64,000 nt of DNA from Dehalococcoidia bacterium (lineage in GTDB: Bacteria > Chloroflexota > Dehalococcoidia > Lucifugimonadales > UBA3495): positions 1,194,220 to 1,258,219 of the forward strand of contig OZ240213.1 in assembly GCA_965197555.1 (NCBI GenBank), given 5' to 3'. Numbering within the stretch: the stretch's first letter is position 1; each line of letters starts with the position of its first letter. Position numbers and translations under genes: made by a program. A model generated the notes under the pieces. It searched no databases, was not told where the DNA came from, and saw only the letters and a program-made list of their open reading frames with translations. This document shows positions 8,097 to 8,360 of the stretch, piece after piece.

Positions 8097-8360
8097 GTGG
8101 CTTCCGATAAAAAGATGGAACTGGAGATTCTGTATTGCCAGGATTGAGGTCATGCCCTTCGTGCCGCCTGGATGGCGGGAGAGGCGTTGAACCGGGCTGG
8201 TGAGCACATCGAAAACTTTAAGCTCACGCCCGGGCCCCACGGTAAATTCGATGTCATTCTCGACGGTGTTGTGGTGGCCGACCATCGCCACGAACCCGAC
8301 GCTCACATCTTCCCAGACCTACAGGACCTGATGAAAGCGATCAACAACCGCATTGGCTAG
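8097..8360 (+). CDS. SelW/SelT/SelH (Rdx) family selenoprotein; in-frame TGA at 8145-8147 read as selenocysteine (C-Q-D-U motif)
   Basis: The track ORF 8172-8360 lacks the family's N-terminus. Extending upstream in frame gives VASDKKMELEILYCQDUGHALRAAWMAGEAL...LTPGPHGKFDVILDGVVV...IFPDLQDLMKAI. This is the Rdx signature (I.YC..U/C...RA.W.a.eL ... G.FeV..dG ... FP). GTG 8097 is preceded by GGGAGGTG (8085-8092). Confidence 0.75.
8157..8184 (+). promoter_or_regulatory. candidate bacterial SECIS hairpin for the TGA at 8145
   Basis: Upper stem CCGCC (8164-8168) / GGCGG (8174-8178) with loop UGGAU. A possible lower stem 8157-8160 / 8181-8184 lies across a small internal loop. The apical loop starts 24 nt after the U of UGA. 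Confidence 0.5.

Follow-up and report, generated by a model that had tools for sequence, protein, structure and literature searches.

Mammalian SelW (SEPW1) and the SelT, SelH and Rdx12 group share a Pfam family, a CxxU motif and a presumed thioredoxin-like fold with the small bacterial protein analysed here. Eukaryotic members of the SelW group are decoded with the help of a 3′-UTR SECIS element and SBP2, whereas the candidate SECIS of our gene lies inside the coding region, 21 nt past the UGA, as it does in bacteria. Prokaryotic genomes as well as the metagenomes of the Sargasso Sea and GOS have yielded SelW-like selenoproteins (PMC1088965, PMC1794560, PMC2398784), and in 2005 SelW-like CxxU proteins were reported to be the most abundant selenoprotein family in Sargasso Sea data (PMC1088965). 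The locus resembles these bacterial proteins (PF10262, TIGR02174, COG3526) in encoding a small single domain of ∼85–90 residues with CxxU right after strand 1, in having an in-ORF bacterial SECIS immediately past the UGA, in its marine or environmental habitat and in the scarcity or absence of Cys-forms in Sec-using organisms. The published model of such elements, bSECIS (PMC13188914, Fig. 2A), has an apical loop of 3–9 nt on an upper stem of 4–16 bp, one G or more at loop positions 1 and 2 (usually with G or U as the next nucleotide), a UGA–loop spacing of 16–37 nt and an MFE ≤ −7.5 kcal/mol. In selenoprotein richness, MAGs of Dehalococcoidia rank in the bacterial top ten (PMC13326102). The protein family and its use in Dehalococcoidia are already well known, and the gene described below does not change knowledge of selenoproteins; its unusual feature, which might merit specialist interest, is membership of a Sec-only subfamily with five invariant histidines.

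The gene lies on the forward (+) strand, as do all features named here, of a 64-kb window, the whole stretch of DNA analysed, from a Dehalococcoidia (Chloroflexota, SAR202-type) genome. A sequence-only reading had proposed a SelW/Rdx selenoprotein with a C-x-x-U motif hidden behind an in-frame TGA, and HMM scores, homologue alignment, TGA conservation and the SECIS all support that proposal. We are highly confident that 8097–8360 is one gene encoding an 87-residue Rdx (SelW/SelT/SelH-like) selenoprotein, with GTG at 8097 as its start and TAG at 8358–8360 as its stop. Its translation is VASDKKMELEILYCQD*GHALRAAWMAGEAL...NNRIG*, where the first asterisk marks the internal TGA, the predicted selenocysteine codon, at 8145–8147, just where it had been placed. 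The redox motif C14-Q-D-U17 occupies 8136–8147, from TGC at 8136–8138 through the TGA. Also as described beforehand, the mechanically called ORF is 8172–8360 (62 aa), the form that gene callers give and an artefact of taking the TGA for a stop.

The encoded protein belongs to the Rdx family. With U replaced by C, the read-through protein scored 50.2 bits against Pfam Rdx (PF10262; cutoff 22.6) over profile positions 2–73 of 74, whereas the called 62-aa ORF reached 20.1 bits and fell under the cutoff. The read-through protein also scored 35.4 against TIGR02174 (CXXU_selWTH; cutoff 34.2) over positions 1–74 of 74, and the thresholds of both models were passed only with the TGA read through. The Rdx profile search with U replaced by C, which the sequence-only reading had suggested as a check, thus supported it. 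The Dehalococcoidia subfamily differs from bacterial SelW-like selenoproteins in lying barely over the TIGR02174 cutoff. Six solved bacterial Rdx proteins of the same sequence family matched at E = 6e-10 to 7e-6: 2P0G (named by its depositor 'Selenoprotein W-related protein'), 2OKA, 2FA8 (Atu0228), 2OBK, 2OJL and 3DEX. Homologues had been expected to align across the TGA, and they do so, the second Cys of CxxC standing there in the six solved proteins and in database protein P0266. Residue-by-residue alignments cover 2P0G and 2OKA, the other four solved chains being matches. In these alignments ILYCQDUGHALRAAW is paired with IYYCRQCNWMLRSAW (2P0G), ITYCTQCQWLLRAAW (2OKA) and ITYCTQCRWLLRAAW (P0266), each with Cys at the U17 position; with 2P0G and 2OKA the pattern I-x-Y-C-x-x-C/U-x-x-L-R-A/S-A-W corresponds at every residue, and both also share the G-x-F and F-P motifs. 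The solved proteins differ in carrying Cys in place of the predicted Sec, in having W, G, R and Q where the window protein has H19, H48, H63 and H65, and in a three-residue gap over H70. A model of residues 18–87, which lacks strand 1 (pLDDT 78), showed the expected order of helix, strands and helix with an extra β-hairpin, and a Foldseek search with this strand-1-less model gave no significant match in the PDB.

Database homologues numbered 168, and those listed (120) were all calls of 56–76 aa of the truncated kind; JGI names proteins in the clade of the window gene 'predicted Rdx family selenoprotein'. Another database protein, P0248, has Arg at both motif positions. A Cys-form of the Dehalococcoidia subfamily was found neither by a C-terminal query against 1.84 billion representatives nor by an N-terminal profile against 5.8 billion clusters.

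The reading frame runs on through a conserved TGA. We compared the window with 80 orthologous genome loci, all from Dehalococcoidia or Chloroflexota, giving 81 sequences; the 80 loci align over residues 1–87 of the window protein, and the alignment is ungapped over the SECIS stretch. The recoded codon is TGA in 81 of 81 sequences and never TAA, TAG or a sense codon, which disposes of the sequencing error or frameshift named at the outset as a possible cause of the stop. Codons upstream of the TGA show synonymous third-position wobble (TAC/TAT, TGC/TGT, ATA/ATC/ATT), demonstrating that this stretch is translated. Both flanks of the TGA show purifying selection, and it is beyond chance that all 80 independent loci have kept the TGA, its frame and the coding sequence around it. 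Two orthologues, L034 and L038, have extra stops and have lost the Cys; the other 78 are intact. Among these 78, C14 and U17 are invariant, 25 residues are invariant in all, and 15 or 16 residues precede U in all but one (77/78). The start position of the window gene is occupied by ATG, GTG or TTG in the orthologues. We also considered a reassigned genetic code, which was ruled out: among the 52 open frames with 200 or more codons in the window, 22 have TGA as their ordinary terminator, as expected of a standard code.

Downstream of the TGA, a hairpin is under RNA-level selection. The CCGCC/GGCGG hairpin with loop UGGAU seen in the sequence-only reading is present at 8164–8178, where 8164–8168 pairs with 8174–8178 (5 bp) around an apical loop at 8169–8173, and RNAalifold on the 81 sequences gave the same 5-bp stem and 5-nt loop as its consensus. 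The claimed distance of 24 nt holds when counted from the U of UGA to the start of the loop and is equivalent to 21 nt (8148–8168) between codon and loop, a spacing identical in all 81 sequences. On all four counts of the bSECIS model (PMC13188914) the window hairpin agrees: its loop (5 nt) and stem (5 bp) are inside the ranges, its loop U-G-G-A-U has G at position 2 and then G, the spacing is 21 nt, and the consensus folding term is −9.06 kcal/mol (RNAalifold), with an MFE of −17.5 kcal/mol for 46 nt of the window. All sequences but the defective L034 and L038 (79 of 81) have TGGAT as the loop. This agreement, together with the specific covariation described below, upholds the earlier identification of the hairpin as a SECIS, and we treat 8164–8178 as a candidate bacterial SECIS core. 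Like the E. coli fdhF-type SECIS and the bSECIS consensus (PMC13188914), it is a stem-loop right after the UGA and within the ORF; it differs from them in that its conserved core is minimal (5 bp and a 5-nt loop) and its lower stem does not keep one register across the clade.

The evidence for selection on the RNA comes from synonymous sites. Pair 8165/8177 is C-G in 34 of the 81 sequences, U-A in 31 and mismatched in 16 (C·C in 13), and a neighbour-joining (NJ) tree placed ∼8 independent C-G↔U-A switches there. Among 71 distinct sequences the pair showed 30 double changes, a covariation score that 0 of 500 shuffles reached, and its mutual information was the highest of 406 wobble-column pairs (p=2.6e-19). 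GC3 drift was considered as the source of the coupling between GCC..GCG and GCT..GCA and rejected: the coupling is confined to the paired columns, and drift is excluded because locus GC is equal in the C-G and U-A classes. All 81 sequences use GCC for Ala+7, the fourfold-degenerate third position of which pairs with the G of ATG, as against ∼1.6 bits of third-position entropy in neighbouring Ala codons. Four of the five stem pairs never vary, and three of these four are fixed by the protein sequence and therefore uninformative on structure, either way. The 16 sequences mismatched at 8165/8177 require a shifted register with a bulged C. Neither the window and six orthologues (z = +0.3 to −1.0) nor the window hairpin alone (z = −0.2 to −0.7) showed extra folding stability over shuffled sequence; since folding z-scores are uninformative in GC-rich coding sequence, we rely on conservation and covariation. 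A lower stem or extension at 8150–8190 is tentative, with partial pairing in the MFE structure of the window (8150–8159 with 8179–8190). Columns 18/36 (8162/8180) show four Watson–Crick pair types, though pairing there is confined to 28 of the 71 distinct sequences; the lower stem has no single register conserved across the clade. In the window, Rfam gave no match at its gathering threshold, and around the gene only noise at E≤10. The hairpin provides a further minimal bacterial SECIS, cleanly supported by covariation, inside the codons for a conserved peptide, AAWMAG.

Upstream, the TTGACA-18-TATCAT arrangement described beforehand was found at 8034–8063, with the −35 element TTGACA at 8034–8039, an 18-nt spacer and the −10 element TATCAT at 8058–8063. 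This predicted σ70-type promoter agrees with the consensus at 11 of 12 positions and was the only promoter-like site in 7900–8700, where shuffles gave an expectation of 0.5. In 62 of the 81 loci a TTGAC-N16-20-TAnnnT element keeps its place at −55 to −70 relative to the start. The Shine–Dalgarno sequence said to precede GTG 8097 likewise exists, reading GGGAGGTG at 8085–8092, 4 nt ahead of the start codon, and almost every orthologous locus has a GGAGG-like motif at this position. Neighbouring genes are an α/β-hydrolase, DUF503 and Rex in one half of the clade and an IMPDH-like gene in the other. In the mechanism we propose, the Rdx gene would be transcribed on its own from the promoter at 8034–8063 and translation would start at GTG 8097. 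At UGA 8145–8147, the hairpin 21 nt downstream would recruit SelB·GTP·Sec-tRNA(Sec), and selenocysteine would be inserted in place of termination. The product would carry C14-x-x-U17 at the start of helix 1, and most likely cycles between selenol/thiol and selenenylsulfide as a small thiol-dependent oxidoreductase. For SelB dependence, actual Sec insertion and the redox chemistry, this scheme draws on what is established about Sec decoding in bacteria and about Rdx proteins.

A second Sec-decoding gene had been claimed at 3169–4365, and the comparison bears this out: it has an in-frame TGA at 3649–3651 that is conserved, with Cys in homologues. This predicted companion selenoprotein gene, GrdB/PrdB-like with a U-x-x-C motif, gave a Pfam GRDB match of 37.9 bits ending exactly at the TGA. 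Its full-length homologues have Cys at the TGA position (TPTCPLCT), closer homologues are truncated, and TPT*PLCTH recurs on an unrelated metagenome contig. The companion is 4.5 kb from the Rdx gene in the window and near it in only 1 of 80 loci, and has no functional link to it; since it is so rarely adjacent and the neighbours differ between the halves of the clade, we draw no operon-level inference. No tRNA gene, and hence no selC, was found in the 64-kb window, and selA, selB and selD were absent from the 20 long ORFs examined in it (of ∼65); all 20, among them the 10 sized to fit SelA, SelB or SelD, were other proteins, and a 683-aa GTPase was EF-G. Because no sel genes were found among these ORFs, the presence of the Sec machinery is supported instead by what is published for the lineage (PMC13326102, PMC1794560) and by the pair of conserved Sec codons. 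A tRNA-SeC called by ARAGORN in a related locus (L052) was rejected, its Rfam tRNA-Sec score being 13.7 bits against a gathering threshold of 47 and its anticodon loop lacking U33.

Could TGA 8145 be a genuine stop, the product being the 62-residue ORF 8172–8360, perhaps preceded by a leader peptide of 16 residues, and Sec playing no part? Gene-caller output and the 56–76-aa lengths of the 120 listed database homologues match this account, as does the lack of Sec machinery among the 20 long window ORFs examined. Conservation of ATG 8172 would also fit, but is accounted for by its being the Met of the conserved AAWMAG motif and part of the hairpin. Against it, the 62-aa ORF is below the Rdx cutoff and lacks both strand 1 and the CxxC/U active site. 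Across 80 loci, protein-level conservation with synonymous wobble extends over the 16 codons upstream, in one and the same frame, and the codon that interrupts this frame is always TGA and never TAA or TAG; we regard a genuine stop as exceedingly improbable. The further defects of L034 and L038 and the two Arg residues of P0248 might instead suggest a pseudogene, or a TGA created by sequencing or assembly error from a Cys codon (TGC or TGT). The comparative data effectively refute such an origin: all 81 assemblies, which are independent and stem from both short- and long-read projects, carry the TGA, only two of the 80 orthologues have other defects while the 78 intact ones share 25 invariant residues, and both flanks of the TGA are under purifying selection.

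Two further accounts accept the 87-residue frame and dispute how it is decoded. The UGA might be read through with Trp or Cys inserted by near-cognate decoding, or through a suppression specific to the lineage, the hairpin merely slowing termination. Sec insertion in the window protein is an inference rather than an observation, and the hairpin is short and thermodynamically unremarkable, both of which leave room for such a process. Yet homologues have the catalytic second Cys of their CxxC motif at this very position, the one that Sec takes over from Cys in known SelW-like proteins (PMC1088965). In the size of its loop, the place of the G and the spacing, the hairpin conforms to the bSECIS model of the SelB type (PMC13188914), and the lineage is documented to decode Sec and to be rich in selenoproteins (PMC13326102). 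The lack of a subfamily Cys-form in 5.8 billion clusters would moreover be odd if Cys were acceptable there, and we consider decoding as another residue very unlikely. Alternatively, Sec might be inserted through another signal, the conserved hairpin being a by-product of the AAWMAG peptide or an unrelated mRNA element acting in stability or ribosome pausing. Four of its five pairs are invariant, three of them forced by the Ala, Trp, Met and Ala codons, and ∼13% of bacterial selenoprotein genes have no canonical SECIS according to BSepDB (PMC13326102). Nonetheless, both sites free to vary silently behave like RNA pairs: one covaries between C-G and U-A and heads the 406 pairs in mutual information, and the other, the third position of Ala+7, is C in every one of the 81 sequences. 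Position and loop agree with the bSECIS consensus, and we consider a role other than that of a SECIS quite improbable.

For practical purposes the locus matters mainly for annotation. The window gene and every relative of it that was listed in the public protein collection are recorded as fragments of 56–76 residues without the active site, so proteomic, phylogenetic and functional surveys of the abundant ocean and subsurface Chloroflexota will miss or misread it.

What distinguishes the Dehalococcoidia subfamily from solved canonical members is a set of five histidines, H19, H48, H63, H65 and H70, invariant in the 78 intact orthologues, and a three-residue insertion before the F-P motif. H19 lies two residues past Sec and H48 in the G-x-F motif, while H63, H65 and H70 are on the inserted β-hairpin just ahead of the F-P loop. 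If the histidines cluster in space with Cys14 and Sec17 and bind metal, both of which are purely inferential, this Sec-only Rdx subfamily, found here only in Dehalococcoidia, could have a remodelled active site in which His, Cys14 and Sec17 form a metal-binding or specialized catalytic centre. We consider this doubtful; were it true, the protein might differ in function from canonical Rdx proteins and act as a seleno-metallochaperone, as a metal sensor or as a peroxidase-like centre. Some orthologues additionally carry His-rich C-terminal tails.

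Within the Rdx locus, mechanical ORF calling recovers only a 62-residue frame (8172-8360, plus strand). The frame 1 translation of 8097-8360 reads VASDKKMELEILYCQD, an in-frame TGA at 8145-8147, then GHALRAAWMAGEAL and on to NNRIG and the terminal stop. It begins at GTG 8097, which lies 4 nt downstream of the Shine-Dalgarno sequence GGGAGGTG. These elements, read directly from the DNA, lie where the sequence-only reading had placed them. With the selenocysteine (U) written as cysteine, the 87-residue protein scored 50.2 bits against Pfam Rdx (PF10262; cutoff 22.6), covering profile positions 2-73 of 74, and 35.4 against the NCBIfam model TIGR02174 'CXXU_selWTH' (cutoff 34.2); the called ORF reached 20.1 bits on Pfam Rdx, below the cutoff. 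Six solved bacterial Rdx proteins were also matched (2P0G, 2OKA, 2FA8, 2OBK, 2OJL and 3DEX; E=6e-10 to 7e-6). As aligned with 2P0G and 2OKA, ILYCQD-U-GHALRAAW pairs with IYYCRQ-C-NWMLRSAW and ITYCTQ-C-QWLLRAAW, respectively, so that the TGA falls on the second Cys of CxxC. P0266, a canonical CxxC Rdx protein from a large protein collection, aligned in the same way. Rdx homologues thus align across the TGA, and readthrough restores the CxxU motif, as had been proposed.

A protein search returned 168 relatives; those listed, 120 in number, have lengths of 56-76 residues and span only the C-terminal 63-77% of the query; among the matches listed, relatives start at MAGEAL... or, via a TTG start, at MRAAWMAGE.... 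Several carry the JGI label 'predicted Rdx family selenoprotein'. In a scan of one genome per species, tblastn aligned residues 1-87 through the stop in 80 loci, each of which carries a Dehalococcoidia, Chloroflexota or SAR202 label. The recoded codon is TGA in all 80 and in the window, with no TAA, TAG or sense codon among them; the flanking alignment has no gaps. Across the 11 upstream codons examined, entropy is concentrated at third positions, the signature of coding sequence (Tyr, TAC 61 and TAT 20; Cys, TGC 64 and TGT 15; Ile, ATA, ATC or ATT). Most loci have ATG as the aligned start codon and the others GTG or TTG; 15 or 16 residues lie ahead of U in 77 of 78 intact orthologues. Of the window's 52 open frames with 200 codons or more, 22 end in TGA, and the genetic code is therefore standard. 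A sequencing error or frameshift, either of which might have produced the stop, fails as an explanation since TGA recurs in 81/81 sequences; together with the upstream coding signature and the standard code, this allows error, frameshift, pseudogene and codon reassignment all to be dismissed for the clade. The sole defect of the gene is its shortening by gene callers. Three degenerate sequences were encountered: locus L034 (6001-6261) has Cys replaced by Tyr in the CxxU motif and several more substitutions at otherwise invariant positions, locus L038 (6001-6258) has Cys replaced by Phe and two extra in-frame stops, and the database protein P0248 has Arg at the Cys and Sec positions alike. All three are probably pseudogenes or read errors.

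RNAalifold, given the 81 sequences from the TGA to +55, returned a single consensus helix (-9.06 kcal/mol) pairing columns 20-24 with 30-34, that is, 8164-8168 with 8174-8178. This is the CCGCC-UGGAU-GGCGG hairpin claimed earlier (8164-8178, plus strand). Its 5-bp stem and 5-nt loop, the G at loop position 2 followed by G, the 21-nt spacing and the consensus energy agree with all four features of a published bacterial SECIS model (PMC13188914, Fig. 2A). Stability above that of shuffled sequence was sought for the hairpin and not found (z = +0.3 to -1.0); thermodynamics alone would give it no support. Three of the five stem pairs are dictated by the Ala-Ala-Trp-Met-Ala peptide and are therefore uninformative on structure, but both silently variable stem positions, judged from the alignment, act like RNA. 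Pair 8165/8177, formed by the third positions of Ala+6 and Ala+10, occurs as C-G (34 sequences), U-A (31), C·C (13) or another combination (3), and U was never seen without A. Its covariation score was matched by 0 of 500 column shuffles, and the signal was lost when the partner was slid. On a neighbour-joining tree built without the columns of 8165 and 8177, C-G and U-A interchange about eight times, including between the close relatives L031 and L033. The third position of Ala+7 (8168), the partner of the G of ATG, is C in 81/81; third-position entropy is about 1.6 bits in Ala codons +3, +10 and +13.

Such coupling could also arise if AT-ending codons simply tracked genome composition. This was rejected on two grounds, pair specificity and locus GC. 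The mutual information of 8165/8177 (0.94 bits) tops all 406 wobble-column pairs, the runner-up having 0.66, and its Fisher p is 2.6e-19; with each of the other wobble columns, column 21 (8165) gives about 1e-5 at best. Locus GC averages 0.593 for the C-G class vs 0.606 for the U-A class. In the C·C class, mostly one subclade, the apical loop is unchanged but is reached by shifting the register and bulging out a C. Beyond a G·G mismatch, four Watson-Crick types occur at 8162/8180, though 28 of 71 distinct sequences at most pair there, and its place as a further SECIS pair is tentative. We consider it very probable that 8097-8360 is a true SelW-like selenoprotein gene carrying a working bacterial SECIS, in support of the original interpretation.

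The proposed promoter, TTGACA-18-TATCAT at 8034-8063 (plus strand), is present; it matches the consensus at 11 of 12 positions and is the sole promoter-like site within 7900-8700. TTGAC-N16-20-TAnnnT recurs at -55 to -70 relative to the start in 62 of 81 loci, and a GGAGG-type Shine-Dalgarno sequence precedes the start in almost all of the 81. This recurrence makes the Rdx gene look independently transcribed, as a unit of its own. Upstream lie genes for an FAA hydrolase (1040-1846, minus), a luciferase-like monooxygenase (ending at 3046, plus), a GrdB/PrdB-like protein (3169-4365, plus), an HdrD/GlpC-like CCG/4Fe-4S protein (4471-6522, plus) and an α/β-hydrolase (7134-8006, plus); downstream lie a conserved small ORF of 63-70 aa with no Pfam match (8572-8784, minus), DUF503 (8966-9280, minus), Rex (9475-10128, plus) and ATP synthase ε, β, γ and α (10171-14984, minus). 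The closer half of the clade shares this gene order, and there the small ORF and DUF503 gene are both retained between Rdx and Rex; in the distant half, the gene downstream of Rdx encodes an IMPDH/GMP-reductase-like TIM-barrel protein. As no neighbour is kept clade-wide, the gene neighbourhood offers no hint of function. In the gap separating the Rdx gene from the convergent small ORF, a 10-bp GC-rich hairpin at 8439-8466 (GGACCCCCAA...TTGGGGGTCC) scores as a minus-strand intrinsic terminator, with a T-run on that side only, and may serve the small ORF or both genes.

The GrdB/PrdB-like gene, divided by gene callers into ORFs of 160 and 231 aa, reads ...LLTPT-U-PLCTH... (U-x-x-C) through TGA 3649-3651, and its Pfam GRDB match (37.9 bits) terminates exactly at that TGA. 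Relatives at 43-46% identity, named D-proline reductase PrdB by JGI, are full length with Cys at this position (TPTCPLCT); those at 58-64% are called as C-terminal halves only, of about 230 residues. The unrelated metagenome contig L090 shows the identical TPT-stop-PLCTH split. The Cys-bearing full-length homologues and the L090 split bear out the claim that two Sec-decoding genes lie less than 5 kb apart. Since just one of the 80 loci has them side by side, they do not form a functional pair. A hairpin with a CGUGA loop lies downstream of TGA 3649-3651, and the gene is directly upstream of the HdrD/GlpC-like gene.

No tRNA genes were found in the 64-kb window, nor were SelA, SelB or SelD among the 20 long ORFs examined there, those of fitting size included. 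ARAGORN called a tRNA-SeC in locus L052 (7784-7872, minus), 1.7 kb from the Rdx orthologue; we rejected it, as it scored 13.7 bits vs 47 on Rfam tRNA-Sec and its loop lacks U33, and it is probably a false positive. Adjoining it is a SelA-related PLP enzyme of the MJ0158/UPF0425 family (6289-7542, plus), scoring 197 bits on TIGR03576, under that model's cutoff. Published work on the lineage provides the support for Sec machinery: the Sec-decoding trait is present in Chloroflexi (PMC1794560), and the top ten bacteria by selenoprotein content include two Dehalococcoidia MAGs, which have 49 and 46 genes (PMC13326102). In Sargasso Sea data, the most abundant selenoprotein family was that of the SelW-like CxxU proteins (48 genes; PMC1088965), whose Cys-forms were noted to be few or absent where the organism uses Sec (PMC1794560). 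The Rdx gene therefore belongs to a type that has been known for a long time, and its lineage is known to use Sec heavily.

Twenty-five positions are invariant across the 78 intact orthologues, among them five histidines, H19, H48, H63, H65 and H70 (codons at 8151, 8238, 8283, 8289 and 8304, plus strand). In contrast, the solved CxxC Rdx proteins carry W, G, R and Q in place of H19, H48, H63 and H65, and a 3-residue gap spans H70; in the Dehalococcoidia subfamily three residues are inserted ahead of the F-P motif. A model of residues 18-87 (pLDDT 78) places an extra beta-hairpin just ahead of F72-P73, with H65 and H70 on it and H63 at its edge; this model, which is without strand 1, gave no significant PDB match. 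Cys-forms of the subfamily were found neither by a C-terminal query of 1.84 billion representatives (21 hits) nor by an N-terminal profile against 5.8 billion clusters. That no Cys-form turned up would fit a specialised variant with an obligate need for Sec, which may bind metal. The five histidines and the insertion may point to a site for metal binding or specialised catalysis. Some orthologues, namely loci L014, L031 and L033 and proteins P0008 and P0012, end in a short His-rich tail (HGHH, GHHH, GHSH, SHSH); the window copy ends in NNRIG, without such a tail.

Elsewhere in the window, a GC-rich repeat array occupies about 37100-38070, between ORFs 36118-37092 and 38010-39293. The repeat unit is 183 nt in one part (37456-37811, 89% match) and 90 nt in another (37806-38067, 90% match), the array's recurring motifs include GAGCTTGTCGAAGGCCCGCC and GGTTCGACAAGCTCACCACGAACGG, and it looks like REP-type intergenic repeats.
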